A stretch of DNA of 64,000 bases from Candidatus Doudnabacteria bacterium RIFCSPHIGHO2_02_FULL_43_13b (GCA_001777655.1 MFER01000013.1:68322-132321), one strand, 5' to 3'; numbered from the stretch's first letter, positions 3,708-63,424 are shown. Notes: a model not told the origin generated them from the sequence alone. A program made the numbers and translations.

Positions 3708-3803
3708 ATTTTAAATGATTTATTTTTAATTTTGATTCAATTTCTAATATTTTAATATTAAAAATTCACTCGAAATTCAAAACTGAAAATTAAAAATTAT
3801 ATT

Positions 3804-4163: not shown

Positions 4164-4990
4164 TGTATTACTACATCGTCGATCCGGGAAAAATTTCACA
4201 GCGAGATTTCGAACGAGTCCAGAATCAGCTGTACTCGTCTGTTTCTGAATACAAAATTGCTGGTGAAATAGCGAGGGTTACCACGCTGCGCACCATTCCT
4301 CAGCTGGTCGAAGGAGCGTTGACCCGAGGGTATAAAACTATTGTGGCCGTGGGTGGTGACGATACTCTACACGATTTAATCAATGCCGTAGCCGGTCGGG
4401 AAGTGGGGATAGGATTCATCCCAATAATTGCATCTGAAGTTGGACAGATTTTGGGACTTGGCGATATTCCACATTCTGCTAAAACCATAGCCATTCGTCG
4501 AATCGAAGAGATGGATTTAATCTACATTAATCACAACGCGATTATCACATCAGTGGCGTTCGGCGCAGGCATGCAGGCTTACTCCTCGATATTTGAATTG
4601 TGGCGTTTGCCAACTTTTCAGATCGATTTTTCGGCTGACAACAATGAGTTTCGAGGAACAACTCAAGCAATTGGCGGGGTCGTCATTAACAGCCGCCTGA
4701 AAAAACCTGACAACCAAAAACTTTTTAATCCCACCGATGGAATATTGGATGTATTATTATTGCCGAAGCTTTCCAAGTTCCAAACCTTGAAGTTTCGAAT
4801 AGATATTTTAAAAGGAAACTTCGAAAAAATCCCGGGCAGCAGCATCATCCACGTCCGGCAACTGCAGATTTCTGCTCCTGAAGGCCTGCCGCTGCGGGTT
4901 AGTAATAAAATTATCACCCGCACGCCAGCAACGATCGAAGTCAAACCAAAGGCACTCAAAATCATCGTCGGAAAAGAGCGGAAATTTTAA
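4163..4990 (+). CDS. Lipid/diacylglycerol kinase catalytic-domain protein (YegS/DagK-like)
   Basis: TIVAVGGDDTLHDLINAV matches the DAGK_cat GGDGT motif; its start ATG overlaps the bactofilin stop (TAATG). Confidence 0.6.
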   Translation: MYYYIVDPGKISQRDFERVQNQLYSSVSEYKIAGEIARVTTLRTIPQLVEGALTRGYKTIVAVGGDDTLHDLINAVAGREVGIGFIPIIASEVGQILGLGDIPHSAKTIAIRRIEEMDLIYINHNAIITSVAFGAGMQAYSSIFELWRLPTFQIDFSADNNEFRGTTQAIGGVVINSRLKKPDNQKLFNPTDGILDVLLLPKLSKFQTLKFRIDILKGNFEKIPGSSIIHVRQLQISAPEGLPLRVSNKIITRTPATIEVKPKALKIIVGKERKF

Positions 4991-13451: not shown

Positions 13452-15914
13452 ATGGATATCGGTAAAGTCAATCCAAGATCAATTGAACGTGAGATGGAGG
13501 AGTCATATTTGGATTACGCGATGAGTGTGATCGTGGCTCGGGCCCTGCCGGATGTTCGAGATGGGTTAAAACCCGTCCACCGCCGAATTCTTTATGCCAT
13601 GTCAGAGCTCGGGCTTCGCTCCAACGTAAAATTTCGCAAATCAGCGGCTGTGGTCGGGGAAGTTTTAGCCAAATACCATCCCCATGGGGACGTCGCAGTT
13701 TATGATTCCATGGTCCGCATGGCCCAAGAATTCGCCATGCGTTATCCCTTAATTGACGGGCAAGGAAACTTCGGTTCCATGGACGGCGATGCCCCGGCGG
13801 CCATGCGTTATACGGAAGCGCGCATGATGGCTTTGGCCGAAGAAATTTTGGCCGACTTGGAAAAAGACACGGTGGATTGGATGGATAATTATGATGCCAC
13901 AAAAAAAGAACCGAAAGTGCTGCCGGCCAAAGCTCCCAACCTGCTGCTCAACGGCACTTTAGGCATCGCAGTCGGGATGGCCACTGATATCCCGCCTCAC
14001 AATTTAGGGGAAGTGGTGGATTCCGTGATTAAATTAATTGAAGAACCACAAACTACGACTGATGAACTAATGGAGTTTGTGAAGGGCCCGGATTTTCCAA
14101 CTGGCGGATTTATCTATGATTGGAATACAATCAAACAAGTTTACGCCACCGGCAAAGGCCCCATCGTCATGCGCGGCCGGACCGAGATTGTGGAAGAAAA
14201 AGGCGTCCATAAAATTCTGATTACGGAAATTCCCTATCGAGTCAATAAGGCAACTCTCTTAGAGCAGTTTGCCGAGCTGGTGAAAGATAAAAGAATCGAA
14301 GGGATTAAAGATCTAAGGGATGAGTCGGACAAAGACGGGGTGCGAATCGTGATTGATCTGAAAAAAGAAGGCTTACCGAACAAAATTTTAAATCAATTAT
14401 TTAAATACTCATCTTTGCAAGAAACCTTCCACGTCAACATGCTGGCCTTGGTAGATGGAATAGAACCGCAGGTTTTGAACTTAAAAAATATTTTAGAATA
14501 TTACATTAAACATCGGGCCGAGGTTATCAAGCGGCGCACTGCTTTTGATTTGAACAAAGCGAAAGACCGCGCTCACATTTTAGAAGGATTAAAAAAAGCC
14601 CTGGATCATATCGATGCAGTGATCCAAACAATTAAGAAATCTGATACCACGGAAGAGGCTCATGCAGCCCTGATAACAAAATTCAAATTGTCAGATAAGC
14701 AGTCAACCGCGATTCTGCAAATGCAGCTTCGCGCACTGGCGGGATTGGAGCGTAAAAAAATCGACGATGAATTGAAGGAAAAACGGAAATTGATTGAAGA
14801 ATTGGAAGATTTACTCAAAAGTGAAAAAAAGATTAAAACCGTGGTCAAAACCGAACTGTTGGAATTGAAAGATAAATATAACAATCCTCGCAAAACCACG
14901 TTAGTGAAACAACCGATTGGAGAATTTAAAGCAGAAGATTTAATCCCCGAGCAATCAACCATGGTAATCGTTACCAGGTCAGGATACGTCAAACGTCTGC
15001 CCCCAGATACTTATAAAACCCAGGGCCGCGGCGGCAAGGGGGTAATCGGCATGACTACCAAAGAAGAAGACGTGGTAGAATGGCTGTCGACGACCAATAC
15101 TCACGATGATATTTTATTCTTTACGAACAAAGGGCGGGTTTTCCAAACCAAAGTCTACGAATTACCAGAAGCTTCCCGCACCGCCCGCGGTCAGGCCTTG
15201 GTCAACTTCTTGGAACTGCCGACTGATGAAATGGTTTCGGCCATCTTAACTTTTTCCAAGAAAATCCCGGCCAAATTTCTGATCCTTTCGACCAAAAAAG
15301 GCTTGATTAAAAAAACCGTAATCGAGGAGTTCGCGAAAGTCAGGCGATCGGGTCTGATTGCTATAAAGCTCAAAACCGGTGACGAACTGCGCTACGTCAA
15401 ATATTCTACGGGCAACGACGATGTGATTTTGTCCACGGCAGGCGGGCAAGCGATTCGGTTTGATGAAAAAGACGTCAGATCCATGGGCCGCGCCACTGCC
15501 GGAGTGAAAGGTATGCGATTGAAATCCGCCAGAGGCGGATCCTCCTCCGGAGGAAAAGATGATTACCTGATGAGTATGGATTTGGTATCCAAGAAAAACA
15601 AACTGGAAAATTTGCAACTTTTGATCGTCACGGAAAATGGCTTAGGCAAAAAAACAGATTTGAAATTCTACAAACGGCAACATCGCGGAGGATCGGGTAT
15701 AAAAACTTTGAAAGTTAGCCCGAAAACAGGCAAGATTGTCTCCCTCCACGTAATTGATAAAACCGAGGAACACGATCTGATGGTTATTTCCAAACTCGGA
15801 CAAACTCTTAGGACCCCCATCGGCAAAATTTCAACGCTGGGCCGCGCCACCCAAGGCGTACGAATCATGACCTTGGATAATAAAGACAAAGTGGCTACAA
15901 CCACAATAATTTAG
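13452..15914 (+). CDS. gyrA: DNA gyrase subunit A
   Basis: [16 protein letters not shown], the active-site Tyr region, and GyrA-box beta-pinwheel repeats. Confidence 0.95.
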
Positions 15915-15999
15915 AATTTACAATTTTGATTGAATTTTCGAAATTTGAATATTTAATATTCATTCGAAATTCATAACTCAAAATTAAAAATTCACTTTC

Positions 16000-18444: not shown

Positions 18445-18546
18445 TGTCTTTGCGAGCGAAGCGAAGCAATCTCTTTACTTAGGTCGGGATTGCTTCGTCG
18501 CTGTCGCTCCTCGCAAAGACAGAAGGAAAAAGACAGAAGGAAAAAG
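18445..18546. repeat. Palindromic repeat family 1 copy (12-bp perfect outer inverted repeat TGTCTTTGCGAG/CTCGCAAAGACA) followed by a 14-bp tandem GACAGAAGGAAAAA x2
   Basis: Shares the GCGAGCGAAGCGAAGCA and TTGCTTCGTCG arms with the copy at 351..428. The tandem ends at the ruvC ATG. Confidence 0.7.
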
Positions 18547-19020
18547 ATGAGAATACTAGGAATCGACCCCGGAATCGGCCGCACTGGCTATGCAATTTTG
18601 GAACAAACCAAGCAGAAAATTACTCTGCTGGCTTGCGGTTGTATCACGACCAAAACCGGCGAGGCCGAGCCTGCGCGATTGCTCGAGATCAAAACTGACT
18701 TAATGGCGATTATCAAAAAATATAAACCAGAAGCGATTTGCATTGAGTCATTATTTTTCGCGGCCAACGCGAAAACCGCGATGATGGTTGGGCAAGCTAG
18801 AGGAGTGGTGGTCGTCACCGCAGCGGAGAGCAAACTAAAAATTATTGAGGTCACCCCACTGCAAGTCAAAATTGCTGCCACAGGTTATGGCAAAGCGGAT
18901 AAACGGCAAGTGCAAACCATGATTGTCAAACTTTTGAAGTTAAAAAAAATCCCCAAACCCGATGATGTAGTGGATGCCATCGCTATCGCATGGGCGGGGA
19001 TTGGACGGACTAAGTACTAA
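18547..19020 (+). CDS. ruvC: Crossover junction endodeoxyribonuclease RuvC
   Basis: MRILGIDPGIGRTGYAIL RuvC N-terminus; start moved to the internal Met after the repeat. Confidence 0.9.
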   Translation: MRILGIDPGIGRTGYAILEQTKQKITLLACGCITTKTGEAEPARLLEIKTDLMAIIKKYKPEAICIESLFFAANAKTAMMVGQARGVVVVTAAESKLKIIEVTPLQVKIAATGYGKADKRQVQTMIVKLLKLKKIPKPDDVVDAIAIAWAGIGRTKY

Positions 19021-38082: not shown

Positions 38083-38225
38083 CCCAGTATATCAACTTCG
38101 ATAAATGGTTTATTGGCTTTTGCATAAAATTAAAGTCTTTATTATAGATTTTTTGCTTAATCTATTATTATTAGTTTGATAATAAAACCATTTAGGGGCA
38201 AAAGCATCGAAGTTGTATTACTGGG
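38083..38225. mobile_element. MITE-like element A, copy 1 (about 143 bp, TIR CCCAGTATATCAACTTCGAT / ATCGAAGTTGTATTACTGGG)
   Basis: Near-identical inverted copy at 48128..48274. Terminal inverted repeats match at 18 of 20 positions. The element starts 1 nt from the tsaE start codon. Confidence 0.65.
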
Positions 38226-38282
38226 CTTATTTTAGCAGCTATTGACGACTTAGCCAAAACCAATTATAGTAATATGATTTAT

Positions 38283-38423
38283 GCCCGGTAGTAGAAATTT
38301 GATATTTATCCCGCGACTCGTGGGATAAATAAAAAACAACCGCGCGATAAAATTTCTTTGCTGGTTATAATAATCAAAGACAATTAGTAACTAATTTATT
38401 CTTTAATCAAATTTTCACTACCG
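38283..38423. mobile_element. MITE-like element B, copy 1 (TIR CCCGGTAGTAGAAATTTGAT / AAATTTTCACTACCGGG)
   Basis: Second copy at 47962..48057 with the same termini. It abuts the ATG at 38427 as ..CACTACCGGGTATG. Confidence 0.55.
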
Positions 38424-38426
38424 GGT

Positions 38427-39566
38427 ATGGAAATCACAGCTCAAATTACCTCAAAAATTTCACAGGCCGCCACAGTCTTGATTATTGTGGCAGGAGATAG
38501 CGGTGATAGCCTGGCCGCCGGTTTAGCATTGCAAGGATTTCTTAAAAAACTGGAGAAGGAAACCGCTGTTTTATCCTTCACCCCGAAATTGAACAAGCTA
38601 GATTTTTTGCAAGGATTTAGGGAGGCTCGGGAAGAGCTGGATGTGACCAAAAGTTTTGTCATTGACGTCTCAACCAAGCAGACGCAAATCGAGGAACTAA
38701 GTTATAAAAAAGAGGTTGATAAACTCTCGATTTTTATTAAACCTAAAAAAGGCCAATTCGAAAAAAATGACATTAGTTTCCGCAGTTCAAACTTTCCCTT
38801 CGATTTATTAATCATGATCGGGGTTGACTCGCTGGACCGTTTGGGGCAGCTTTATAATGAAAATACGGAATTATTTTTTGAAACCCCGATTTTAAATATC
38901 GATTTTAAGGCTACTAATGAAAATTTTGGGCAATATAATCTAGTGAATTTGACTGCCACTTCCAATTCGGAAATTGTGTTTGATTTAATCAACCACATTG
39001 AGGCTACCTTTATTGATGAAGCGATCGCGACTCAACTGTTAACCGGGATTATTTCCGAAACCGAAAGTTTCCAGCATGTTCGGACTACACCCCAAACTTT
39101 TCTCAAAGCTTCCCAGTTAGTCAGTTTAGGCGCCAACCAACAGGAAATTATCTCAAGGCTTTATAAGACGAAAAGTTTGGGGTTACTAAAGCTATGGGGC
39201 CGGGTTCTTGCTCGTCTGCAGCAGGCGCCAGAAATTTCTTTGGTTTATTCGTCAATTAATCAAACCGATCTAGAACGCTCACAGGCTTCGGAAGAAGACG
39301 TTCAGACTATTATCAAGGAAATGTCGATGCAGTTAGGGTTTGCCAAACTGTTTTTATTTTTTAAAGAAGACCAGTCCAACCAAACCTCTGTTTGGTGCCA
39401 CTCCACTCTGCCGGTTGATTTAAGACAAATTTTCGCCCAGTTTAAGCCCAAACTACTCGCTTACCAGACGACCTATTTTAGTTTGAACCAACCGTTATCT
39501 GAGGCGGAAAAACAAATCGTCTCGTTGCTAAAAAGTGACATTGCCAAATATAAATTGAACATGTAA
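38427..39566 (+). CDS. DHH/DHHA1-like phosphoesterase (NrnA-like), possibly degenerate active site
   Basis: NrnA-like architecture with VAGDSGDSLAAGLAL in place of HxNPDGDAxGS and NHI in place of DHH. Confidence 0.4.
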   Translation: MEITAQITSKISQAATVLIIVAGDSGDSLAAGLALQGFLKKLEKETAVLSFTPKLNKLDFLQGFREAREELDVTKSFVIDVSTKQTQIEELSYKKEVDKLSIFIKPKKGQFEKNDISFRSSNFPFDLLIMIGVDSLDRLGQLYNENTELFFETPILNIDFKATNENFGQYNLVNLTATSNSEIVFDLINHIEATFIDEAIATQLLTGIISETESFQHVRTTPQTFLKASQLVSLGANQQEIISRLYKTKSLGLLKLWGRVLARLQQAPEISLVYSSINQTDLERSQASEEDVQTIIKEMSMQLGFAKLFLFFKEDQSNQTSVWCHSTLPVDLRQIFAQFKPKLLAYQTTYFSLNQPLSEAEKQIVSLLKSDIAKYKLNM

Positions 39567-41431: not shown

Positions 41432-43741
41432 ATGGAATTTAAGCAAAAACTCCTTTTAATTGATGGGCATGCGCTGTTTCATCGCGCTTATCACGCCTTG
41501 CCCAATATGACTGGGCCGGGCGGGTTTCCGACTGGCGCGATTTTCGGCTTTTTGTCCATGTTATTTAAAGCTTTGGTGGACATCAAACCGACCCATGCTT
41601 TGGTAACCTTTGACGTGCCTGGCAAAACTTTCCGCGATGAAATGGCGGCAGATTACAAAGCGCACCGCAAGGCGCCGGATGAACAGATGGTGATCCAACT
41701 CCCCAAGCTCAAAGAAATTTTGGCCGCGCTTGATATTCCAATTTATGAAAAAGAAGGATTTGAAGCCGATGATCTGCTCGGCATTATCTGTCACAAAACT
41801 TTAAAAGATGTCTTGAATATTATTGTCACTGGCGATTTGGATTTGTTGCAGCTAATCGATAATCATACCCATGTTTATCGGTTCAAAATTGGCTTTTCGG
41901 ATATCCAAATTTTCGATGCGGATAAAATGGTGGAAACTTTCGGGCTGCACCCGTCACAATGGGTGGATTACAAAGCCATCCGCGGGGATACTTCGGATAA
42001 CATTCCCGGTGTGCCAGGCATTGGTGAGAAAGGGGGCCTGGAATTGATTAAACAATTCGGATCTCTGGACGGCGTGTATGAAGCCGTAAATCAAGGAGCA
42101 GGCTCCGACGCTTCGGTCGGAGCAGGCAAAATCAAACCCGGGACCTTGAAAAAATTGATGGCTGGCAAAGATAAGGCATATTTATCTCAAAAATTAGCGC
42201 ACATTGACCAAACCAACCATCTGGATTTTGATTTTGAAGACACATTGCTTGATAAATATGATCAGGAAAAAACCAAAGAGTTATTGCATACGCTCGGAAT
42301 CAAAGCTTTGGATTCGAGACTGCCAGGGCTTAAGCAAGTTGAAAGTAAACAGGAAGCAGGAAGCAGTAAGCAGAGTGGTAAATCAAATAAATCTAATAAT
42401 CTAATCAAATCTGAAGCCCAAGCCCAAATCGCGGCATATCTTCTCGATCCCGGTCGGCGAAGTTATGATACGAGTAACTGGGACGAACTAGCTAAACAAC
42501 TGAGCGAACAGAAAAAACTTCTCGAACTTTATCAAGAGATTGAACTGCCGCTGATGCCAGTGCTTGAAAAAATGCAACAGCGCGGCGTCAAGGTGGATTT
42601 GCCTTGGCTGAAATCGTTAAGCGTGAAGCTTGAAGCGCGAATTGCAACTTTAACGAAACTGATTTACAAAGAAGCGAACATGGAATTCAATATCGCTTCC
42701 CCGATTCAACTGCGCGAAGTGCTGTTTGAGAAACTTAAGATTCCGACAGAGAATATTCGCAAAACCGGCAAAACCAAAGCGCTTTCCACGGGTGCGGAAC
42801 AGTTGGAAAAATTGCGCGGCCTGCACCCGATCATTGAATTAATCTTCGAGTATCGAGAACTGGCGAAACTCAAATCTACCTACATTGATGCGTTGCCGGA
42901 GTTAGTCGGACCAGATGACCGGATTCATACAACCTATAGCCAAACGATCTCGGCGCATGGGCGGCTGTCCTCGGTTAATCCCAATCTGCAGAATATTCCC
43001 ATCAAAACCGAACTGGGCAATAAAGTGCGCAAGGCTTTTATCGCTGATCCTGGCCAGGTCTTGTTGTCTTTGGATTATTCGCAGATTGAATTGCGCATAG
43101 CCGCGTCGTTGTCAGGGGACGCGGAGATGATTAAGATTTTTGACAAAGGCGAAGATTTTCATAGCGCCACGGCGGCGAGAATTTTCGGCGTGAAGGAGTC
43201 GGAAGTTACCCCGAAGCAACGACGCGATGCCAAAACCATTAATTTCAGCATTCTTTATGGGGTGTCAGCCTTCGGTTTATCCGAACGATCGGAAATGGAG
43301 CGGGCGGAAGCGGCCGACTATATCAAAAAATACTATGAAGCTTTTCCGCAATTGAAAGCCTATATCATGGGCCTAATTCAACTGGCCCACCAAGACGGCT
43401 TTATGACCAACCCGTTGGGTCGGATCCGTTATTTTCCGGAAATTCATGATTCGAAGTTCGCGGTTCGCACCGCGGCCGAGCGCTCGGCTGTGAATATGCC
43501 CATGCAATCGCTGGCTGCGGATATTATTAAAATGGCCATGATTGAGATTGATCAGAAATTGCCGGATCTAAAAATGCTCTTGAGTGTGCATGATGAATTA
43601 GTTTTTGAAGTAAAAGAAGGCGAGGAGAAAATTTGGGCGGCCAAAATTAAGCCGATCATGGAATCCGTCTATCAATTAAAAGTGCCAGTGATGGTGGAGG
43701 CCAAATTCGGCAAAAATTGGGCGGAGATGAAAAAGATATGA
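41432..43741 (+). CDS. polA: DNA polymerase I (5'-3' exonuclease plus polymerase; proofreading domain apparently reduced)
   Basis: N-terminal FEN-like domain and C-terminal Pol A motifs (DYSQIELR, KTINFSILYG, SVHDELVFE). Confidence 0.9.
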   Translation: MEFKQKLLLIDGHALFHRAYHALPNMTGPGGFPTGAIFGFLSMLFKALVDIKPTHALVTFDVPGKTFRDEMAADYKAHRKAPDEQMVIQLPKLKEILAALDIPIYEKEGFEADDLLGIICHKTLKDVLNIIVTGDLDLLQLIDNHTHVYRFKIGFSDIQIFDADKMVETFGLHPSQWVDYKAIRGDTSDNIPGVPGIGEKGGLELIKQFGSLDGVYEAVNQGAGSDASVGAGKIKPGTLKKLMAGKDKAYLSQKLAHIDQTNHLDFDFEDTLLDKYDQEKTKELLHTLGIKALDSRLPGLKQVESKQEAGSSKQSGKSNKSNNLIKSEAQAQIAAYLLDPGRRSYDTSNWDELAKQLSEQKKLLELYQEIELPLMPVLEKMQQRGVKVDLPWLKSLSVKLEARIATLTKLIYKEANMEFNIASPIQLREVLFEKLKIPTENIRKTGKTKALSTGAEQLEKLRGLHPIIELIFEYRELAKLKSTYIDALPELVGPDDRIHTTYSQTISAHGRLSSVNPNLQNIPIKTELGNKVRKAFIADPGQVLLSLDYSQIELRIAASLSGDAEMIKIFDKGEDFHSATAARIFGVKESEVTPKQRRDAKTINFSILYGVSAFGLSERSEMERAEAADYIKKYYEAFPQLKAYIMGLIQLAHQDGFMTNPLGRIRYFPEIHDSKFAVRTAAERSAVNMPMQSLAADIIKMAMIEIDQKLPDLKMLLSVHDELVFEVKEGEEKIWAAKIKPIMESVYQLKVPVMVEAKFGKNWAEMKKI

Positions 43742-45959: not shown

Positions 45960-47960
45960 TTACTTGAAACTATGCCGCTTCATCCGTTGTTTTTGGCGGA
46001 TGGCTTGGATTTCATCCCGTAATTTGGCGGCTTGTTCGAAATCAAGATTGCGGGCGGCCAGATCCATCTGATCGCGCAGTTCTTCGATCGCATAAGCAAT
46101 TTCTTGCTTGGTCATTTTGGTCAGATCTCGTTGAGGGGTGAGGGGTGAGGGTTCGGGGGTGAGTTTTTGACCAGCAAGCCGAGATTCGCGAATTGCCTTT
46201 TCTATACCTTTGGGCGTGATGCCATGTTTTTTATTATAATCTTCTTGGATTTTACGGCGACGGAGGACTTCATCCGTGGCCCGCCGCATGGAACCCGTGA
46301 TTTTGTCAGCATACATAATTGCCTTGCCATCTAAATGTCTGGCTGCCCGACCCATGGTTTGGATAAGAGAGGTATCGGAGCGCAAAAATCCTTCCTTATC
46401 AGCATCAAGAATGGCAACCAGTGAAACTTCCGGCAAATCCAAGCCTTCTCGTAAAAGGTTGATCCCCACGACCACATCATAAACACCTATTCGCAAATCG
46501 CGCAAAATTTCCAACCGTTCTAGGGTCTCTACGTCAGAGTGCAGATAATGGACTTTTATCCCATATTCTGTCAGATAATTGGCCAATTCCTCGGCCATGT
46601 TTTTGGTCAAGGTAGTAACCAAGACGCGTTGGTGTTTTTTCACTCGAATTTGGATTTCCTCCATTAAATCATCAATCTGATTTTTCGTCGGCCGAATCTC
46701 GATCTTAGGATCCAACAGGCCGGTTGGTCGGATCAACTGCTCGGCGACTTGTTTTGAGATTTTAAGCTCGCGGTCTTTCACCGGGGTAGCAGAAACAAAA
46801 ATTGTCTGGCCGATTTTTTTCTCAAATTCCTCGAATTTTAAAGGCCGGTTATCGGCAGCAGACGGTAGGCGAAAACCGTAATCAATCAAAGTTTTTTTGC
46901 GGGATTGGTCGCCCAAATACATCCCACCGATTTGCGGCAGTGTCATGTGAGATTCGTCGATAAACAGCAGAAAATCGTCAGGGAAATAATCCAGCAGGGT
47001 AGATGGCGGTTCTCCGGCCTTACGAAAGTCTAGCTGCCGAGAGTAGTTTTCAATCCCTGAGACAAACCCTGTTTCCAGCATCATTTCGATATCGAAATTT
47101 GTTCGCTGCTCAATCCTTTGGGCTTCGAGTTCCTTTCCTTGTTTTTTGAAAAATTTAACCTGATCGGCAAGTTCCTTTCGGATATTGCCAATCGCCGCCA
47201 TTAGCTTTTCTCTCGGTGTGACGAAATGTTTAGCTGGAAAAATAGTATATTCATCCAAGGTCCCGAGATCTTGACCAGTCAGAGGATTGTGCTGGGAAAT
47301 TTTTTCCACCCTATCACCATCAAAATTAAACCGCAAGACCCAATCAGAGGAAGCGGGGATAATTTCGATGACGTCTCCTCTGACGCGGAACGTTCCGCGC
47401 TCTAAATTAATGTCGTTTCGTAAAAACTGCAGATCGGTTAAGCGCCGTAAAAATTTATCTCGCTTGAAAGTCTCACCAATCCTAACTGGAATTGATAATT
47501 CCAAATAATCGTCCGGGGAACCCAAGCCATAGATACACGAAACAGAAGCGACGATCAGGACGTCTTTGCGAGAAAGGAGGCTTTCGGTGGCGGCATTGCG
47601 CAATTTATCAATCTCTTCGTTAATTTCCGTTTCTTTTTCGATATAAGTGTCAGAGCGCGGGATATAGGCCTCCGGTTGATAGTAATCATAATAAGAGACA
47701 AAATAGTGCACAGCGTTATCTGGAAAGAAATTTTGAAACTCTGAGGCTAATTGCGCCGCTAAGGTTTTATTATGAGAAATGATTAAAGTTGGTTTTTGGA
47801 GTTTTTCGATAACGTTGGCCATGGTAAAAGTTTTACCTGAGCCTGTCACCCCCAAAAGCGTTTGGTAGCGGTATTTTTTGGCCAGACCCGCAACTAGTTT
47901 GTCGATGGCATCTGGTTGATCCCCCGCGGGTTTGAAATCGGAATGAATCTTAAACGGCAT
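45960..47960 (-). CDS. uvrB: Excinuclease ABC subunit B
   Basis: [12 protein letters not shown] Walker A, helicase motifs, C-terminal UVR domain. Confidence 0.95.
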
Positions 47961-47961
47961 A

Positions 47962-48057
47962 CCAGGTAGTAGAAATTTGATTAATGCTTAAATTTACTGC
48001 AAGGTGTTATATTAATCTGTTCGCGAAGCGAACAGATATGAAATTTTCACTACCTGG
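47962..48057. mobile_element. MITE-like element B, copy 2
   Basis: CCAGGTAGTAGAAATTTGAT...AAATTTTCACTACCTGG with the internal hairpin CTGTTCGCGAAGCGAACAG. It starts 1 nt from the uvrB start codon. Confidence 0.55.
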
Positions 48058-48127
48058 CATAGTAAATTTCATTGTAGCAGAAATTTGTTGCGGGTGTATA
48101 GACCAACAGAGTATAATACGTTTATGA

Positions 48128-48274
48128 CCCAGTAATACAACTTCGATGCTTTTGCCCCTAAATGGTTTTTGAATTAACCTTCATTAGTTATATGACTAAG
48201 AATACAGTTAATAATAATGGTTTTTTTAGCGCAAAAGCGCACACAAAAACCATTATCGAAGTTGATATACTGGG
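48128..48274. mobile_element. MITE-like element A, copy 2 (inverted relative to copy 1)
   Basis: Its reverse complement aligns along its length with 38083..38225. It ends ..GTTGATATACTGGG directly at the ruvA ATG. Confidence 0.65.
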
Positions 48275-54763: not shown

Positions 54764-57700
54764 ATGTTACAAGCAACCGAAGAATTTAAAGCCGTCCGAC
54801 TCAGGCTCGCTTCACCCGCGGATATTTTGAATTGGTCGTATGGAGAAGTGACCAAGCCGGAGACTATTAATTATCGCACTCAACGGCCGGAGAAAGACGG
54901 TTTATTTGATGAGAAAATTTTTGGTCCGATTAAAGATTGGGAGTGTTATTGTGGTAAATACAAGCGCATTCGTTATAAAGGAATTATTTGCGATAAATGC
55001 GGCGTGGAGGTGACTCGCGCAGCAGTCCGCCGAGAGCGGATGGGCCATATCAAACTGGCCGCTCCCGTCGCTCACATTTGGTTTTTGCGCGGCGTGCCAT
55101 CCAGGTTAGGTTTAGTTTTAGATCTTTCAGTCCAGGAACTTGAGAAAGTCGTTTATTTTGCAGCTTATATTATCACGAATGTTGATGAAGAAGCCAGGTC
55201 AGCTACCCAAGAACAGATTGAGCGAGAATTTAAAGCGAAACGAAAAGAAATTGACGGTCGTTATGAGCACTTACTTAATCAATCCAAAGAAGAGGCTGAG
55301 GGCTTGCGAACCAGAGACATGTGGAGTAAGGAGATTGAACATTTAGAATCAATTCGTGATTTGGCCCGCTCGGAACTTAAATCCATCAAAAAATACCAAA
55401 TTATTTCGGAATTGGAATATCGCGATCTGTCCTTAAAGTACGGTCCGGTCTTTCAGGCCGGCATTGGAGCCGCAGCGATTGAACAGTTGGTTTCGGAGAT
55501 TGATTTGGAAAAACTATTTACCTTGTTGCGAGAAGAAATTAATACCGCGGAAGGCGTGAATAAGCGTAAATTAATTAAACGTCTCAAGTTGGTCAAATCG
55601 ATGATTAAATCCGCGATCCGACCCGAATGGATGATTATCCAAAACTTGCCGGTCATCCCGCCGGATCTGCGTCCGATGGTTCAATTAGATGGTGGTCGGT
55701 TTGCCGCTTCGGATTTGAACGATTTATACCGTCGAGTGATCAATCGTAATAATCGATTAAAAAAACTTTTGGAAATCGGCGCGCCGGAAGTGATTACTAG
55801 GAATGAAAAAAGAATGTTGCAAGAGGCAGTGGATGCTCTGATTGATAATTCTATCCGGCATGGTAAGGAAGTCACGGCTTCGACCGGTCAAAAACGTAAA
55901 CTTCGATCGTTAGCGGATATGTTGAAAGGCAAACAAGGAAGATTCCGACAAAATCTTTTAGGTAAACGTGTGGACTATTCCGGCCGCAGCGTGATTGTGG
56001 TGGGACCGAAATTGAAACTGCACCAGTGTGGTCTGCCGAAAAAAATGGCCTTGGAATTATTTAAACCATTTGTCATTTCTAAATTGATTTTAAGAGAGTT
56101 TGCTCATAATGTTCGCAGTGCCAATCGGTTGATTGAGCAAGGACGACCAGAGGTTTACGATATTTTAGAAGAGGTGACCAAACATCACTATGTCTTGCTC
56201 AATCGAGCCCCGACCCTGCATCGATTAGGTTTTCAAGCTTTTTTGCCAGTCTTAATTGAAGGCAAGGCCATCCAGATTCATCCCATGGTTTGTGATGCTT
56301 ATAACGCTGATTTTGACGGTGATCAAATGGCTGTCCATGTTTCCCTGACCGAAGCCGCTCAAGAAGAAGCGCGGAACATTATGTTGTCTGCCAAAAATTT
56401 GTTGAAGCCAGCCTCCGGAGAACCAGTCATGGGACCTACGAAAGATATGGTCTTAGGATGTTTTTGGTTGACCCGCATCCAGGCGGGTCAAAAGGGAGAA
56501 GGCATGGTTTTCGGCAGCGCAGAAGAAGCAATTTTGGCCTACCAATCCGGGATTTTAAGTTTGAAAGCCAAAATTAAAATTCGTTTGGGAGAAAAATGGG
56601 GCAATTTGGGTTTAACAGAAACTTGCGTTGGCCGGGTAATGTTTAATCAGATTTTACCGGAGGGGGTTAGGTTTAATAACGAAGTCATGGATAAAAAGAA
56701 ACTGCAACAGGCCTTACAGGTAGTTTATCGGGATTTTGGCATTGAGCGTACGGCCGATCTTTTAGATGAGATTAAAAAATTAGGGTTTAATTACGTCACC
56801 AAATCAGGTTTGTCTTGGGGGATGGAAGATTTGAAGGTGCCGGAAATTAAGAAACAATTGGTTGAACAAGCCGATCGAGAAGTTTTGGAAACTTACGAAC
56901 AACATCGAATGGGACTGTTGACTGAGCAAGAACGATATAATCGGGTGATTGAAATTTGGGCTACGGTCCGTGATAAAGTGGCGGAAGCTGTGACGAAAAG
57001 TTTGGATGAATATGGACCGGTTTATCAAATGGTGATTTCCGGAGCGCGGGGATCAGTTTCGCAGCTGGCTCAGATGGCTGGCATGAAAGGGTTGGTGACT
57101 AATCCGGCTGGGGACGTCATTGAATTGCCAGCCAAAGATTCATTTAAAGAAGGTTTAAGTATTTTAGAGTATTTTATCTCTACTCACGGTTCCCGTAAAG
57201 GGATGACCGACACGGCGTTGCGGACTGCCGATGCTGGATACCTGACTCGTCGGTTGGTTGATGTGGCGCAGGATATCGTGATCAACGCTGAAGATTGTGG
57301 GGTTGAAGAGGGTCGGATTATTACTAGGGCCTCTTCGGAAGCCTTGGGCCGACCTTTGGCTCGGCGAATTTTTGGTCGGGTCTTGGCAGCCAACGTGAAA
57401 GACGCCTCTGGTAAAGTCATTGCCAAGGCAGGGACCCTAATTGACGATAAACTCTCGGTTGAAATTGAAAAATCTACCACTGATCAAGTAGAGGTCCGAA
57501 CCGTACTTCGCTGCACCCTAACTCGCGGCGTTTGTACCAAATGTTATGGTTATGACCTTGGCTTTAATCGATCCGTCGAACAAGGAGCGGCAGTCGGGAT
57601 TGTCGCAGCGCAGGCGATTGGAGAACCAGGAACTCAGCTGACCATGAGAACTTTCCATACAGGAGGGGTGGCGGGCTTAGATATTACCCAAGGTTTGCCT

Positions 57701-58600
57701 CGGGTCGAGGAGTTATTAGAGGCCCGTGAACCGAAAGGTCAAGCGGTAATTTCCGAAATCGATGGATTCGTTTCCGAAATTAAACCTACGAACAAAGAAA
57801 CCACGATTCGGGTGGAAGCCAAAGAGATTTCCCAAGACAAATACGCTCTCGATCTGCCAAGTGGGGGGCCACGATTACAATTAACTGATGGCGAAGGAGT
57901 CAAGCAAGGGGATCCACTGTTCGTCAATACCAAAGGTGAGACGATCAAGGCTAAAGCACCGGGAGTCGTAAAGATTAAAAATAATCAATTGTTCGTCGTT
58001 CATGAATCTGAGAATTTTAAAGAATATTCAGCGCCGCTTGGCTTTAACGTAATTGTGAAACAAGGTGAGCTGATTACTAAAGGGCAGGCCTTAACCGAAG
58101 GTAATTTGAACCTACATCAATTATTTATTTTGAAGGGAATTGAGGCTTGTCAGGATTATATCATCAAAGAGGTCCAGGAGATTTATTCTTCCCAAGGACA
58201 AAATGTGAACGAAAAACATATTGAGATTATCGTACGACAAATGTTTTCCAAAGTTCGAATCACTGAAGCCGGAGATGCTGATCTTTTAATCGGGGATTTG
58301 ATAGATAAATCGAGATTACAAATGGCTAACGCGAAAATTGAAAAAGGCAAAGAAGCACAAGCCGAACAACTCCTTATGGGAATTACCAAATCATCTTTGA
58401 ATACCGAATCGTTCTTGGCTGCCGCTTCTTTCCAAGAAACCACGAGGGTTTTAATTGAGGCAGCGGTCACGGCAAAAACAGATTATTTAAGGGGTTTGAA
58501 AGAAAATGTGATTATCGGAAAACTTATTCCAGCTGGCACCGGTTTTCGAAAAGAAGCGCTGGGTGAAAAAGAAGCGGCTGAAATTGCCGATAATATTTAA
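54764..58600 (+). CDS. rpoC: DNA-directed RNA polymerase subunit beta'
   Basis: Zn-finger [35 protein letters not shown] catalytic loop, bridge helix and trigger loop. Confidence 0.95.
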
Positions 58601-59295: not shown

Positions 59296-61521
59296 TTAGT
59301 TTAATTTTATCGGCCATTTTTCGACCAGCAGTAGGTTCTTGTGATTGATTTGCCAGGCGGCTTCGGTAACGAACGGCACGAATGGATGCAGGAGTTTGAG
59401 GCAAGTTTCCAAGACAGTTTTTAACATTAGTTGGGTGGAAGCCTTGGTTTTTGGATTGGCTAGCTGAGCTTTGGATTCTTCGATAATTTTATCAGCGAAG
59501 GTATGCCAAAAGTAATGATAGAGATTTTCTGCCGCATGGGCGAGGTCTTGTTTGTCCAAAAGTTTAGTTGTGCCATTAGTTACTTTGTCTAAATTTTTCA
59601 GGATGACTTTGTGAGCAGGGGCTAATTGAGCTGTTGCGTCCATGCCCTCTGTGTTTTGCATGACAAACCGAGCCGCGTTCCAAATCTTGTTGGCAAAGTT
59701 TCGGTAGCCGCGGACTTTATCTTCTGATAGCGGCAAATCATTGCCTGGCAAGTTGCCGACAACCAAAGCCATCCGCAGAGCGTCGTTGCCATAAATATCG
59801 ATCACGCCCAAAGGATCAATGACATTGCCCTTGGACTTGCTCATTTTTTGGCGATCTTTATCGCGCACCAGGCCATGAAGGTAGACGTTTTCAAACGGCA
59901 CCTGCCCGGTTTTGTAAAGCCCGAACATAATCATCCGCGCCACCCAGAAGAAGAGAATATCCCAACCAGTTTCCATCATTTGGGTCGGGTAAAAAGTCTG
60001 GAAGTTTATACCCCCCCTAGCCCCCCCTATGTTAGGGGGGGAATCTCTCTGTTCTCCTCCTTTCAAGGGGGAGTTAGAGGGGGTATTATCTAATGCCATG
60101 AGTGTGGCATATGGCCACTGACCGGAAGAAAACCAGGTGTCGAAAGTGTCAGGATCCTGGACCCAACCTTCCCCTGGCGATGCTTCTGAAATTTTCAGCT
60201 CATTGTCTTTATACCACACCGGGATCGGAATGCCCCACCAGATTTGGCGAGAAATCGGCCAGTCACGGATGTTTTTCATCCAATGCATTAGCACTTTTTC
60301 AAATTTTATTGGATTTATTTTAACTTTTTTATTTTTTACAGCATTTACGACCAAATCACGCAGTGAAATTTCGAATTTTGAATTTCGAATTTTGAATTTT
60401 TTTGTCATTGCCACATACCACTGGGGGATGATCAGGGGTTCCAGGACATTCTTACACTTGTAGCATAGTGACACGTTGTGCTTGTAAGTTTCATCGATTT
60501 TTTCCAGCAGTCCCAGCTTCTGCAGATCTTCGACAACTACCTTGCGTGCTTCGGCGACCTTCAGTCCGTGATATTTCGTGTTGGGCAAGTCCATCTTACC
60601 TCGCTTATCAATAACCTGTTTGGGCCCTGGGATTTCATCTTTTCCGCCGGGGACGGATCCGCCTTTGGCGGAATGTTTCTGCCAGATTTCGAAATCTGCG
60701 GCATCATGCGCCGGTGTTACCTTGACTACCCCGGTGCCGAAATCTTTATCTACTAGTTCATCCGCAATCACTTTGATTTTAAATTTGCCCAAAAGTCCTT
60801 CAGCCTCCAGTTCTTGGCCAATGTATTTTTTATATCTGGTATCTTTCGGATTGACTGCCAAGGCCGTGTCGCCAAATTTGGTTTCCGGCCGCACTGTCGC
60901 CAAAGTCAGCGGGCCGTATTTGATGTAATAAAGCGGATCGGTTCGCTCTTCGTGCTCGGTTTCGAGGTCAGCTAGGCCGGTTTGGTGTTTGACACACCAG
61001 TTGCAGATGCGGTTGCCGCGGTAAATCAGACCGTCGCGGTACATTTGCTCAAATGTTTCGTAAACGATTTGGATAATCCGCGGATCCAGGGTAAACATAT
61101 TGCGCGACCAGTCAGTCGAAGCGCCGAGGCGGCGAATGCCGTCTTCGGTTTGCTGTTTATAGTCCTGCACGAAATCCCAGACTTCTTTATAAAATTCCTC
61201 CCGCGTCATCTGAAAGCGTGACCGGCCTTCTTTTTCCAGTTTTTTCTCAAACACGACTTGGGTTTCGAACCCGGCATGATCCGTGCCGGGTAGCCAAAGG
61301 GTTTTTCGGCCGCGCATGCGTTCGAAGCGGATCATGATATCTTGCAGAGTAAAGCCTAATGCGTGGCCGACATGGACTTGGCCGTTGGCATTAGAAGGCG
61401 GCATGATGATCGTATATGGCTTGCCCGACAGATTATCGGGATTAAAAAAACCTGACTCTTCCCAGAGTTTGTAAATCTTGGACTCTTTGGATTGGTCATA
61501 GGTTGTGGGGATGTCGCGCAT
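59296..61521 (-). CDS. valS: Valine--tRNA ligase (short form) carrying two in-frame repeat insertions
   Basis: HVGHALG (HIGH) and KMSKSKGN motifs, editing domain. Insertions lie at 60009..60090 (G/C-homopolymer palindrome) and 60361..60400 (tandem). Confidence 0.85.
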   Translation of the reverse strand: MRDIPTTYDQSKESKIYKLWEESGFFNPDNLSGKPYTIIMPPSNANGQVHVGHALGFTLQDIMIRFERMRGRKTLWLPGTDHAGFETQVVFEKKLEKEGRSRFQMTREEFYKEVWDFVQDYKQQTEDGIRRLGASTDWSRNMFTLDPRIIQIVYETFEQMYRDGLIYRGNRICNWCVKHQTGLADLETEHEERTDPLYYIKYGPLTLATVRPETKFGDTALAVNPKDTRYKKYIGQELEAEGLLGKFKIKVIADELVDKDFGTGVVKVTPAHDAADFEIWQKHSAKGGSVPGGKDEIPGPKQVIDKRGKMDLPNTKYHGLKVAEARKVVVEDLQKLGLLEKIDETYKHNVSLCYKCKNVLEPLIIPQWYVAMTKKFKIRNSKFEISLRDLVVNAVKNKKVKINPIKFEKVLMHWMKNIRDWPISRQIWWGIPIPVWYKDNELKISEASPGEGWVQDPDTFDTWFSSGQWPYATLMALDNTPSNSPLKGGEQRDSPPNIGGARGGINFQTFYPTQMMETGWDILFFWVARMIMFGLYKTGQVPFENVYLHGLVRDKDRQKMSKSKGNVIDPLGVIDIYGNDALRMALVVGNLPGNDLPLSEDKVRGYRNFANKIWNAARFVMQNTEGMDATAQLAPAHKVILKNLDKVTNGTTKLLDKQDLAHAAENLYHYFWHTFADKIIEESKAQLANPKTKASTQLMLKTVLETCLKLLHPFVPFVTEAAWQINHKNLLLVEKWPIKLN
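60009..60090. repeat. G/C-homopolymer palindrome CCCCCCCTAGCCCCCCCTATGTTAGGGGGGGAA..GGGGGAGTTAGAGGGGG in frame within valS
   Basis: Encodes the low-complexity segment ..NSPLKGGEQRDSPPNIGGARGGINF.. inside ValS. Confidence 0.6.
60361..60400. repeat. Tandem repeat ATTTCGAATTTTGA x2 in frame within valS (encodes KFKIRNSKFEIS)
   Basis: A related tandem AAATTCAAAATCC sits in tsaD at 63026..63060, both next to CGCGAAC/GTTCGCG-type hairpins. Confidence 0.55.
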
Positions 61522-61558
61522 AGTAATAAGAAAAAAGCGGCTCGTCGGCCGCTAGTGG

Positions 61559-61801
61559 TTATTTTTGCATTCCGACTTTCTTTTCGAGTAATTCTACCCG
61601 TCGCTGTAATTCGACAAGCTCAAACCGATAAGCGACATTGTCGAGCTTAAGTTTAATTTCTTCTTGGCCTTCTTTAAGGTTGTTCAATCTTTTCTCAACC
61701 CCTCCAAAGCCTGTTTGGACCATTACAGCTAAGTCATCAATTGTAGTGCCTGATTTGTTACTCATAAAAATAATTATACTCCCTATTGACAAATTCGTCA
61801 A
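61559..61801 (-). CDS. Small hypothetical coiled-coil protein (80 aa)
   Basis: ORF with a C-terminal heptad-like region (ELVELQRRVELLEKKV). Confidence 0.35.
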   Translation of the reverse strand: MTNLSIGSIIIFMSNKSGTTIDDLAVMVQTGFGGVEKRLNNLKEGQEEIKLKLDNVAYRFELVELQRRVELLEKKVGMQK

Positions 61802-61814
61802 AAAGGAGTATAGT
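61786..61814 (+). promoter_or_regulatory. Sigma70-like promoter (TTGACA, 17-nt spacer, TATAGT) with a palindromic -35 region TTGACAAATTCGTCAA
   Basis: Consensus hexamers at ideal spacing, reading towards the RT fragment; the -35 element sits inside a 16-bp palindrome. Confidence 0.5.
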
Positions 61815-61845
61815 ATTAAACTGATAATTTGACCATCAGATACTT

Positions 61846-62430
61846 TTGAATATTTTCAAGCAATATATCCCAGATCAAGATAATATTTTATGGTTGTTGG
61901 AGGAGATAATTGAGAGCTTTGGATTAGATTGCTTCGTCGCCCCGCCATGGCGGGACTTCTCGCAAATGCGTAAAGATGCTTCTGCGAGGAGCGAAGCGAC
62001 GTGGCAGTCTAAAAAAGGCCTGCCCTTAGGCAACCTCACCTCCCAGCTCTTTATCAATCTCTATATGAATGAATTTGATCAATTCGTGAAGCACAAACTG
62101 AAACTTAAATACTATATCAGATACGCCGACGATTTTGTGTTCTTATCCGATACTAAGAATGACCTTACTGCAATACTGTCCCGTATTGCAGTATACTTGA
62201 ACGATGGGCTAAAACTATCGCTTCACCCTAACAAAATTATCCTCAAAACCTTTTCGTCTGGCCTTGATTTCTTAGGCTGGGTGAATTTCCCGCAGCATCG
62301 AGTCTTAAGAGCCGCGACGAAGCGGCGGATGATGAAAAAAGTCAATGAGAAAAACATATCGTCATATTTGGGGCTTCTAAAACATGGAAATACTCGTAAA
62401 ATTTCTACTTCAATTCCAAATTTGGTTTAG
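61846..62430 (+). CDS. Reverse transcriptase, DGR-type signature, N-terminally truncated (fingers motifs 1-3 absent), TTG start
   Basis: GLPLGNLTSQLFINLYMNEFDQFV has the [ILV]GxxxSQ motif diagnostic of DGR RTs, and YIRYADDFVFL is the YxDD catalytic motif. The ORF is only 194 aa, with a stop 21 nt upstream in frame. Confidence 0.65.
   Translation: MNIFKQYIPDQDNILWLLEEIIESFGLDCFVAPPWRDFSQMRKDASARSEATWQSKKGLPLGNLTSQLFINLYMNEFDQFVKHKLKLKYYIRYADDFVFLSDTKNDLTAILSRIAVYLNDGLKLSLHPNKIILKTFSSGLDFLGWVNFPQHRVLRAATKRRMMKKVNEKNISSYLGLLKHGNTRKISTSIPNLV
61926..62002. repeat. Palindromic repeat family 1 copy inside the RT ORF (GATTGCTTCGTCGCC..CTTCTCGCAAATGCG..CTGCGAGGAGCGAAGCGACG)
   Basis: Same arms as the other family 1 copies; translates in frame as LDCFVAPPWRDFSQMRKDASARSEAT between RT motif A remnants and motif B'. 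Confidence 0.65.
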
Positions 62431-63424
62431 CGGAGAAGGTTTTCACAAACTTTGCTTTGTGATTTTTTATGCGATAATAAGCCGCGAGGCCGATCATGGC
62501 TGCGTTGTCAGTGCAGTACTCAAGCTTAGGAATAGAAGCTTTTAGCTTATAGCTTTTAGCTAACAGTCCGAAGCGCTTGCGAAGTAATTTATTCGCAGCA
62601 ACACCGCCGCCGAGCATGATAGTTTTTGGCTTGTAACGGATGATGGCCTTTTCAAGCTTAGCAATCAGAACATCAACAATGGCTTGTTGCACGGAAGCAG
62701 CGATATCAGGTTTTAGGTTATAGGTTATAGGTGATAGTTCCTGAAGCTTATAAAGCACGGCGGTTTTCAGGCCGGAAAAACTGAATTCGAAATTTTTCGA
62801 GTTGATCATAGGCCGAGGAAAATCAAAGGCTTGCGGATTTCCTCGTTCAGCCAGTTTGCTTAAGTGTGGTCCCCCAGGATATGGCAAGCCGAGCATCTTT
62901 GCGGTTTTGTCGAATGCTTCCCCCGCGGCGTCGTCCAAAGTTTCCCCCAAGATGCGATACTGGCCATGTCCGCGCATGAGGACCAACAGCGTATGCCCAC
63001 CGGAGACAATCAATATTATCGCCGGGAATTTTGGATTTTGAATTTTGGATTTTGAATTTTCGCGAACGAAGTTCGCGTAGATATGGGCCTCCAAATGATT
63101 GACTGGCAGCACGGGTTTATTCAGAGCCAGGCCCAAAGCCTTGGCCGTATCAACGCCGACCATTAGTGAGGTCGCCAACCCCGGACCTTCGGTCACTGCG
63201 ATATAGTCGATTTGTTTCAGTGTCGTTTTCGCCTGTTTCAACGCTAAATCAATCGTCGGGATGATGGCCGTAATATGCTCCCGGGCCGCCACTTCGGGCA
63301 CGACACCACCATACTTTTTGTGCAGACTTGCTTGAGAGGCGATAATATTGGATTTTATCTGACCATTAATAATAACCGCGGCCGCGGTTTCATCACAACT
63401 AGTTTCGATGGCGAGGATCCTCAT
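62405..63424 (-). CDS. tsaD: tRNA N6-adenosine threonylcarbamoyltransferase TsaD
   Basis: MRILAIETSCDETAAAV and conserved His/metal motifs. Contains an in-frame tandem-repeat/hairpin insertion at 63026..63080. Confidence 0.85.
   Translation of the reverse strand: MRILAIETSCDETAAAVIINGQIKSNIIASQASLHKKYGGVVPEVAAREHITAIIPTIDLALKQAKTTLKQIDYIAVTEGPGLATSLMVGVDTAKALGLALNKPVLPVNHLEAHIYANFVRENSKSKIQNPKFPAIILIVSGGHTLLVLMRGHGQYRILGETLDDAAGEAFDKTAKMLGLPYPGGPHLSKLAERGNPQAFDFPRPMINSKNFEFSFSGLKTAVLYKLQELSPITYNLKPDIAASVQQAIVDVLIAKLEKAIIRYKPKTIMLGGGVAANKLLRKRFGLLAKSYKLKASIPKLEYCTDNAAMIGLAAYYRIKNHKAKFVKTFSAKPNLELK
63026..63080. repeat. Tandem AATTTTGGATTTTG x2.5 plus hairpin CGCGAACGAAGTTCGCG in frame within tsaD
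   Basis: Encodes ..ANFVRENSKSKIQNPKFPA..; related to the valS tandem. Confidence 0.55.

Follow-up and report, generated by a model that had tools for sequence, protein, structure and literature searches.

Several small repeated DNA elements of bacteria are relevant to the locus described here. Rickettsia palindromic elements (RPE), of about 105-146 nucleotides (nt) and divided into families RPE-1 to RPE-8, are confined to Rickettsia (Ogata et al. 2000, listed in PMC3184786). REP, BIME and REPIN sequences are GC-rich imperfect palindromes of 20-40 nt that are mobilised by RAYT (IS200/IS605-like), lie outside genes and carry a GTAG or CGTC head (PMC3733652, PMC3116915). Heptanucleotide repeats are reported to be the most abundant class of long simple repeats in many bacteria, with polymerase slippage proposed as their cause (Mrazek 2007 via PMC4679880; PMC4692102); the proposal involves a 7-nt polymerase contact (Mrazek 2007 via PMC4679880). 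Here we compare these systems with a 64,000-nt stretch of DNA from Candidatus Doudnabacteria bacterium RIFCSPHIGHO2_02_FULL_43_13b (GCA_001777655.1, MFER01000013.1:68322-132321; hereafter the window), in which the essential genes valS and tsaD carry heptamer arrays, a 30-nt double-hairpin cassette and a 75-nt palindrome. These segments are real, lineage-specific insertions that are probably translated and probably stem from two sequence-generating processes common in genomes of the candidate phyla radiation (CPR, alias Patescibacteria).

Both host genes lie on the minus strand, as do the features described within them. valS (59296-61521) encodes a valyl-tRNA synthetase of 741 amino acids, which matches Thermus thermophilus ValRS 1GAX at E=2e-146, and hosts three insertions. 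tsaD (62405-63424) encodes a tRNA N6-adenosine threonylcarbamoyltransferase of 339 amino acids, which matches E. coli TsaD 4YDU at E=4.5e-83, and hosts three heptamer arrays. The two proteins are 100% identical to OGE82482.1 and OGE82485.1, respectively, of Candidatus Doudnabacteria bacterium RIFCSPLOWO2_01_FULL_44_21, a CPR member from the Rifle aquifer. Related contigs share the gene order rpoB-rpoC-Gmad2-valS-(variable slot)-tsaD.

We aligned the ValS protein with its 25 closest homologs (66-83% identity) and, by codon, with three orthologous loci. TsaD was compared in a protein alignment of 32 sequences and in a codon and DNA alignment of six lineages. The wider CPR sample consisted of 84 valS-centred loci totalling 1.44 Mb, from which ValS genes were taken by tblastn; the orthologs in it are distant (45-64% identity). 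A second, independent sample for repeats comprised 821 kb of metagenome loci, and close Doudnabacteria DNA was gathered one protein at a time. For this genome itself the census covers the 64-kb window, other loci being represented by short flanks. Counts given below for the 84 CPR loci and for cassette copies on metagenome contigs are among the matches listed. Loci from other lineages are named by handles such as L001 or P0124 where they have to be told apart.

Relative to the 25 homologs and the codon alignment, ValS shows three in-frame changes that are private to this species. The largest is a G/C-rich composite palindrome of 75 nt (60010-60084), which adds 25 residues (480-504, TPSNSPLKGGEQRDSPPNIGGARGG) and is missing from all 25 homologs and from the codon alignment. 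The second is a heptanucleotide array, (TTCRAAA)x4.9, at 60367-60400, which Tandem Repeats Finder also scored as period 14 x2.4. It encodes KFKIRNSKFEI and takes the place of unrelated sequence found in orthologs, with a net gain of four codons over an array-free ortholog. The third is a 30-nt double-hairpin cassette at 60643-60672, reading TCCGCC-AAA-GGCGGA/TCCGTC-CCC-GGCGGA on the coding strand; it adds residues 284-293 (SAKGGSVPGG) and is likewise missing from 25 of 25 homologs. This cassette lay within the coordinates of a preliminary description of this DNA but was not mentioned there.

The first of the tsaD arrays, at 63026-63060, has five units on the coding strand, with AAAATTC and AAAATCC alternating (period 7 x5.0, also scored as period 14 x2.5), and encodes NSKSKIQNPKF. 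It falls in the stretch between the conserved motifs ANFV and FPA, which has no insertion in roughly half of the homologs in the 32-sequence alignment. The stretch is 21 nt (7 amino acids) longer in the window, a difference of exactly three heptamer units. At the DNA level, the empty site of P0124 is a two-unit proto-array, AAAAATC AAATTTC. Five units are present in both the window and L001; a decayed version of the same insertion is seen in L206.

Two further tsaD arrays, also unmentioned in the preliminary description although within its coordinates, involve no change of length. The array at 62706-62739, (AACCTAT)x~4, encodes SPITYNLKP. An equal-length heptamer array occupies this site in all six lineages compared, but with at least five different units (AACCTAT, AAGCTAT, CCTCCTC, AAAYCTT and TAARCAG) and with a lag-7 identity of 0.70-0.95 in each of the six. 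Between the window and P0124, one C-to-G change is repeated in every unit. The arrays at this site evolve in concert, with their length unchanged. The array at 62537-62561, (AAAAGCT)x3.6, encodes AKSYKLKA, and other lineages have different units at this site, such as ACTACCA in L204.

The preliminary description had spoken of in-frame low-complexity insertions in valS and tsaD, and its sequences were all found where it placed them. The ortholog alignment of ValS and TsaD that it proposed as a check delimits the insertions, which are private to the species or missing in close orthologs; the segments are not conserved across orthologs. Insertion is thus borne out in both genes, while the low-complexity label is incomplete, since what it covers are arrays of heptanucleotides and hairpin cassettes, of classes found throughout the CPR.

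It had also paired the first tsaD array with a hairpin, CGCGAAC-TTC-GTTCGCG on the coding strand, which directly abuts the array at 63061-63077 and has a 7-bp stem. This hairpin covers the conserved Y-A-N-F-V codons and the R-E codons and is present only in alleles with the R-E insertion (the window and L206). Taken alone it is weak: 3 of 200 shuffles fold equally well, and such stems are expected by chance in 64 kb. We therefore rejected it as a meaningful element. The suggested link between this hairpin and a MITE-like (miniature inverted-repeat transposable element) "element B" did not hold up, as all that it shares with the hairpin at 48015-48037 is the hexamer GCGAAC/GTTCGC. Element B itself is the hairpin ATCTGTTCGCGAAGCGAACAGAT, held by a pair of inverted intergenic repeats of about 340 nt (38083-38429 and 47958-48274). 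These repeats are 77% identical overall, with blocks above 90%, and bracket a 9.5-kb segment.

Heptamer arrays are far more frequent than expected, both in the window and across the CPR. Six period-7 and three period-14 arrays occur in the window, whereas 60 third-order Markov simulations produced none; other periods from 4 to 15 yielded 0 or 1. The 84 CPR loci contain 55 period-7 arrays (0.0 simulated) and at most 10 of any other period. The independent 821 kb gave 43 period-7 arrays, with at most 11 for other periods. Open reading frames (ORFs) of at least 450 nt hold 47 of the 55 arrays (85%) and make up 84% of the DNA, so the arrays are not depleted from coding DNA. Arrays of four to five units are preferred, and units on the coding strand are rich in A and contain no stop codon in any of the three phases, as in (CAAAATT)x3, which encodes QNSKFKI. 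In the codon alignment of the valS array site, each lineage has its own state: TTCRAAA in the window, (TTCAAAA)x4 in L001, (ATCCAAA)x4 in L002 and no array in L003.

We considered whether some arrays represent a mobile heptamer element, as AAATCCG x4 recurred in five genomes of the first sample. This recurrence was not replicated in the second sample, where 43 arrays had 36 distinct units, and a local origin is therefore preferred. The (AAATCCG)x4 arrays themselves are nearly identical, mostly end in ..CCGAAAC and lie in different genes of distant CPR members (L019, L026, L045, L063 and L081).

Period-7 or period-14 arrays also occur in other long ORFs of the window, at 1407-1441, 18515-18547, 42347-42374, 42615-42641 and 46132-46163, with the units TTACTAT x5, a 14-mer x2.4, CAGGAAG, CGTGAAG and TGAGGGG x4.6. 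Two AT-rich palindromes of 77 nt (3722-3798 and 15916-15992; 83% alike) lie directly downstream of ORF ends. Their arms resemble inverted heptamer-type arrays (AATTTTG.. / ..CAAAATT), and they may act as terminators. In L002, RpoC has an insertion of 18 amino acids that starts with an (AGCAGGA)x3 array, and L130, a metagenome contig that also holds the 30-nt cassette, has an (AAACCCT)x8.4 array with a plant-telomere-type unit at 4384-4442.

A second copy of the 30-nt cassette was found in the window as an inverted match to the valS copy. It lies in gyrA (15525-15554, plus strand), where it forms an insertion of 10 amino acids in the C-terminal domain. This insertion is private to the species and missing from about 115 Doudnabacteria GyrA homologs with identities of up to 89%. 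Each copy folds as two adjacent hairpins (z = -4.0 for gyrA), and both stand directly 5' of the same 8-nt right flank, AAAGATGA. The valS copy differs from the metagenome-wide consensus by two substitutions.

The cassette is widely dispersed in CPR genomes. Among hairpins with 6-bp stems and 3-nt loops, TCCGCC-N3-GGCGGA was the most frequent in the CPR sample, with 16 copies in 11 genomes. Scanning metagenome contigs with the 18-mer TCCGCCAAAGGCGGATCC returned at least 120 stretches, and the canonical second hairpin follows in 95 of 128 instances. The 30-nt consensus is TCCGCC-AAA-GGCGGA/TCCGCC-TCN-GGCGGA, flanked by TT and AA(A): T occupies position -2 in 75 of 88 copies and A position +2 in 76 of 88. 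Variation in one arm is matched in the other (TCCGTC/GACGGA, TCCTCC/GGAGGA). No target-site duplication was seen at any offset among these copies, the flanking 7-mers being identical in 2 of 88. Besides valS and gyrA of this genome, the cassette is present in tsaD of L009 and valS of L007, and inserts resembling SAKGG are found again at two K^KD sites in other Doudnabacteria GyrA proteins. Neither 7.3 Gb of plasmids nor 28 Gb of E. coli genomes contained the full-length cassette. Viral contigs had only two matches to the 18-mer, which makes phages no obvious carrier.

The position of the cassette relative to reading frames is strongly biased. It is stop-free in all six frames, and 68 of 88 copies (77%) lie in ORFs of at least 450 nt, distributed over the three frames as 56, 9 and 3. 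Among non-palindromic copies in ORFs, 49 of 61 are in frame 0 (p = 6e-14) and sense copies outnumber antisense copies 41 to 8 (p = 2e-6). In-frame sense copies mostly read SAKGGSASGG. If insertion takes place at TT^AA, only the phases NTT^AAN or TTA^ANN would be available in ORFs, and this would explain part of the frame bias. The bias in orientation speaks for translation of the insert and for selection of a harmless peptide. Judging by these biases, the cassette is likely translated.

We propose that heptamer arrays arise and turn over through strand misalignment in a 7-base register, during slipped-strand replication or repair. Since 7 is not a multiple of 3, an array passes through all three reading frames, and the only outcomes that would survive in an essential gene are those that preserve the frame, namely changes of three units (21 nt, 7 amino acids) or replacements that keep the length. 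The five units of the first tsaD array, compared with the two-unit proto-array, fit a three-unit change. The constant-length tsaD loop, with its own homogenised unit in each lineage, fits a length-keeping replacement. The arrays would thus reflect a high rate of misalignment in the 7-nt register, filtered by selection on frame and loop length. The second process would copy the cassette into many unrelated genes, preferentially between TT and AA and without target-site duplication, by mobilisation in trans or by templated copying. The cassette would then survive chiefly where it is read as a flexible peptide, SAKGGSASGG, and valS and gyrA of this genome would each hold one slightly diverged copy. 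The peptides so added probably serve no function and are carried along as neutral passengers.

Several points weigh against this proposal. No enzyme or mechanism is tied to either process. Slippage by a single unit would pass through frameshifted, lethal intermediates, so a conversion-like step would be needed for units to evolve in concert without a change of length. The cassette copies in the window are without the TT left flank typical of the family and share one 8-nt right flank. Translation of the inserts is inferred from frame and orientation bias. Lastly, the cassette stands beside or within heptamer arrays much more often than expected from array density, which may mean that the proposal leaves out a mechanistic link between the two processes.

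The association between cassettes and arrays may reflect either shared permissive sites or such a link. In L007 (2650-2700), L114, L184, L170 and L092, a 30-nt (or 15-nt) cassette sits inside a heptamer array that is in phase on both sides. We tentatively raise the possibility that CPR bacteria have an undescribed class of ultra-small DNA cassettes, hairpins of 15-30 nt with the 30-nt SAKGGSASGG double hairpin as prototype, that are copied into coding DNA at TT^AA-like sites, without target-site duplication, by an activity coupled to the generation of 7-nt-register repeats. The coupling is proposed because the cassette occurs inside or beside heptamer arrays beyond chance. If true, no smaller mobile or templated insertion system would be known, and it would be a main route to new loops in the essential proteins of these reduced genomes.

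The 75-nt palindrome in valS, which is long and imperfect, folds as a single composite structure (60010-60084; -20.2 kcal/mol as DNA, equalled by 5 of 200 shuffles) in which a 12-bp outer stem surrounds two hairpins in the style of the cassette, TCCCCC-TTGAAA-GGAGGA and CCCCCCCTA-ACA-TAGGGGGGG. Runs of C7 are found at 60011-60017 and again at 60021-60027, one of G7 at 60035-60041, and the interval 60021-60041 forms a perfect hairpin with a 9-bp stem, CCCCCCCTATGTTAGGGGGGG. TCCCCC-TTGAAA-GGAGGA corresponds to the peptide SPLKGG and C7-TAACATA-G7 to SPPNIGG. The 20-nt terminal arms are complementary at 17 of 20 positions. The flanks, ATAA/ATAA with a 1-nt offset, are ambiguous as a target-site duplication in a single copy. 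A search of Rfam 15 returned only miRNA-like hairpin matches, at 26-27 bits against thresholds of 68-72. By resemblance only, we treat the palindrome as a putative nested or composite member of the hairpin class.

Alternatively, fold-back or template-switch copying of neighbouring sequence in inverted orientation during replication, followed by small tandem duplications, could have built this palindrome on the spot, and perhaps other hairpins that occur once, without any mobile element. We regard this as a serious though less likely alternative, and it too counts against placing the palindrome in a mobile family. With as many as 3 mismatches allowed, 2.27 Mb of related DNA yielded no second copy of the palindrome or of its 20-nt pieces, and the palindrome includes a 10-nt tandem duplication, CCCCCCCTAG x1.9. 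Many private hairpins in the 84 CPR ValS genes are also unique, for example AGATCGTATCTCC-AAA-GGAGATACGATCT in L036 and CCTGCCTGCCGGCAGGCAGG in L081. Perfect hairpins that are each unique and unrelated in sequence are what de novo inverted duplication predicts. However, both arms of the palindrome lie within the inserted 75 nt and its flanks are native codons, so it is no simple inverted copy of adjoining gene sequence. Moreover, L002, P0007 and P0030 have hairpins of the same style (ACCCCCTCT..AGAGGGGGT and ACCCCCTCTTAAATTAAGAGGGGGT, with PPLKLRGG-type peptides) at another loop of ValS.

The hairpins and arrays could also be kept for a role at the RNA or DNA level, such as binding a protein that recognises 7-nt repeats, stabilising mRNA or pausing ribosomes at domain boundaries, in which case the peptides would be by-products. 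This would agree with the compensatory changes that keep stems complementary, with the heptamer periodicity of one tsaD loop in six of six lineages despite their differing units, and with the preference of arrays for four to five units. Cold-shock proteins, in addition, are reported to bind heptamer repeats with one protein per unit (PMC4679880). Units nevertheless vary freely between lineages, which does not fit a reader specific for one sequence. Each insertion is confined to a single species, close relatives of which have working genes without it, and polymorphisms accumulate within the insertions. The apparent compensation can itself come from mutational correction of near-palindromes. We therefore consider such a role unlikely.

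We further looked at where insertions land within the proteins. The 84 CPR ValS genes contain 100 lineage-specific insertions of 4 amino acids or more, which cluster at about seven positions; many of them are heptamer arrays or unique perfect short hairpins. AlphaFold models give a predicted local distance difference test score (pLDDT) below 50 for ValS residues 287-292 and 482-503. TsaD residues 121-130 are modelled as coil with a mean pLDDT of 57, and the segment of the valS array is modelled at moderate confidence. Three of the four insertions thus lie in low-confidence loops, and the models suggest that the insertion sites are tolerant surface loops.

The repeated use of the same loops in different lineages, and the strong bias of cassette frame and orientation towards one peptide, are also what might be seen if the peptides were adaptive lineage-specific loops, for instance interaction surfaces, and the repetitive DNA were incidental. 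Tolerance alone, however, predicts recurrence at the same loops. The peptides are modelled at low confidence, are private to one species and are encoded by exact DNA repeats or hairpins. An identical peptide of 10 amino acids, moreover, is found in proteins as unrelated as ValS, GyrA, TsaD and dozens more. Adaptive loops are very unlikely on these grounds.

Close variants of the host proteins show how stable the insertions are. The exact ValS protein is encoded in two NCBI genome bins and on 11 contigs, the exact TsaD on 16 contigs and the exact GyrA on 11 contigs. The 90%-identity cluster of this ValS includes three more sequences, taken from other assemblies, and these have all three insertions at the same length (the partial one as far as it reaches). 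ValS varies at four residues in this cluster, and two of the four are inside the insertions, which make up about 6% of the protein: V290A in the 30-nt cassette and P495T in the 75-nt palindrome, where it interrupts a C7 run. Among the four cluster members no length variants were found at the ValS tracts, only substitutions. Equal lengths together with polymorphisms inside the insertions indicate that the tracts are stable and under relaxed constraint.

Contingency loci are non-essential surface or restriction genes in which a tract near the 5' end varies in length between cells. The preliminary description had suggested such a role for the homopolymer runs of valS, and the presence of slippage-prone tracts within reading frames is a point of likeness; in principle, 7-nt homopolymers and heptamer arrays are prone to slippage, and one heptamer shifts the frame. 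Neither a dispensable gene, nor a 5' position, nor length variation is found here. valS and tsaD are essential, single-copy genes of a reduced genome that a slip of one base or one unit would frameshift. The tracts are internal rather than at the 5' end or in a promoter, the four cluster members are equal in length, and one variant breaks a C7 run by substitution. Hypermutable tracts that switch valS or tsaD are therefore hardly credible. A sequencing or assembly artefact of homopolymer-rich or repetitive DNA, which had been named as a possible refutation, has next to no probability, as identical and near-identical proteins recur across these bins, contigs and other assemblies with the same insertions, each of which is a multiple of 3 nt and leaves the reading frame open.

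Other features were noted in the neighbourhood of the two genes. The variable slot between valS and tsaD holds an ORF on the plus strand (61846-62430) that corresponds to the C-terminal half of a reverse transcriptase only (RVT_1 positions 111-203). It has an in-frame palindromic insertion of its own at about 61920-62003, which contains CCGCCATGGCGG. The same slot in L002 is occupied by a bAvd gene, a hint at a diversity-generating retroelement in decay. In the window, rpoC (54764-58600) has a private insertion of 4 amino acids, LPSG (codons CTGCCAAGTGGG), at about 57920-57935.

CPR genomes are regarded as extremely streamlined, yet essential genes among them valS, tsaD, gyrA and rpoC contain what would be translated selfish or mutational DNA. 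If the proposal of two processes is correct, it provides a concrete source for lineage-specific insertions in CPR proteins and maps, from natural sequences, which loops of conserved enzymes tolerate insertion. Inserted segments of this kind can distort alignments and phylogenies of marker genes. The occurrence of the cassette in more than 100 gene contexts, and in none of the plasmids of cultivated bacteria or E. coli genomes, points to an undescribed mobilising or templating activity. Arrays that evolve in concert at constant length in an essential gene may offer a handle on why bacteria favour 7-nt repeats. Both phenomena are apparently undescribed in CPR bacteria: a literature search, which was not exhaustive, returned no description of heptamer arrays or of the cassette in this group, the papers on heptamers or small repeats dealing only with others, and searches with the cassette and peptide strings returned only cloning primers.

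Translational bypass (byp) elements of Magnusiomyces mitochondria and the element in T4 gene 60 are GC-rich hairpin insertions in coding DNA that the ribosome skips, and they need be neither in frame nor free of stops. The insertions described here are similar in being short GC-rich hairpins inside the coding sequences of an AT-rich genome. They differ in being multiples of 3 nt and stop-free, with a frame and orientation bias consistent with translation. Nostoc genomes reportedly contain small dispersed repeats of 21-27 nt that look mobile, some with a central palindrome; their flanks are said to be non-random and their insertions nested, in genomes that are also rich in heptamers. The cassette belongs to a different phylum and differs from them in sequence. 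With MITEs, the elements share terminal inverted repeats, in the arms of the 75-nt palindrome and in the 30-nt cassette, which is palindromic throughout. The cassette is multi-copy, with no known parent element, and has no target-site duplication.

The resemblance to RPE lies in palindromic DNA inserted in frame into essential genes and in extra surface peptides that the fold tolerates, RPE being regarded as selfish DNA (PMC3184786). Unlike RPE, the units here measure 15, 30 and 75 nt, occur in a CPR host and have no sequence in common with them. The cassette resembles REP and REPIN sequences, which act as single-strand hairpins, in being small, GC-rich, built of paired palindromes, highly dispersed and without target-site duplication. 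It differs in starting with TCCG rather than with a GTAG or CGTC head, in its TT and AA flanks and in its prevalence within long ORFs. Known heptamer repeats include the cyanobacterial STRR, GGGNATC of Xanthomonas and Nostoc (PMC4692102), TAACTGA of Beggiatoaceae (PMC4679880) and those of the Mrazek 2007 survey. As in these, tandem 7-nt units in the CPR are over-represented relative to other periods, the known repeats having 2-6 copies with about four preferred. Those of Xanthomonas, Nostoc and Beggiatoaceae are reported to be mainly intergenic and under-represented in coding DNA (PMC4692102, PMC4679880), whereas the CPR arrays are not. The CPR arrays are further set apart by their A-rich, stop-free strand in essential genes and by evolving in concert while keeping their length.

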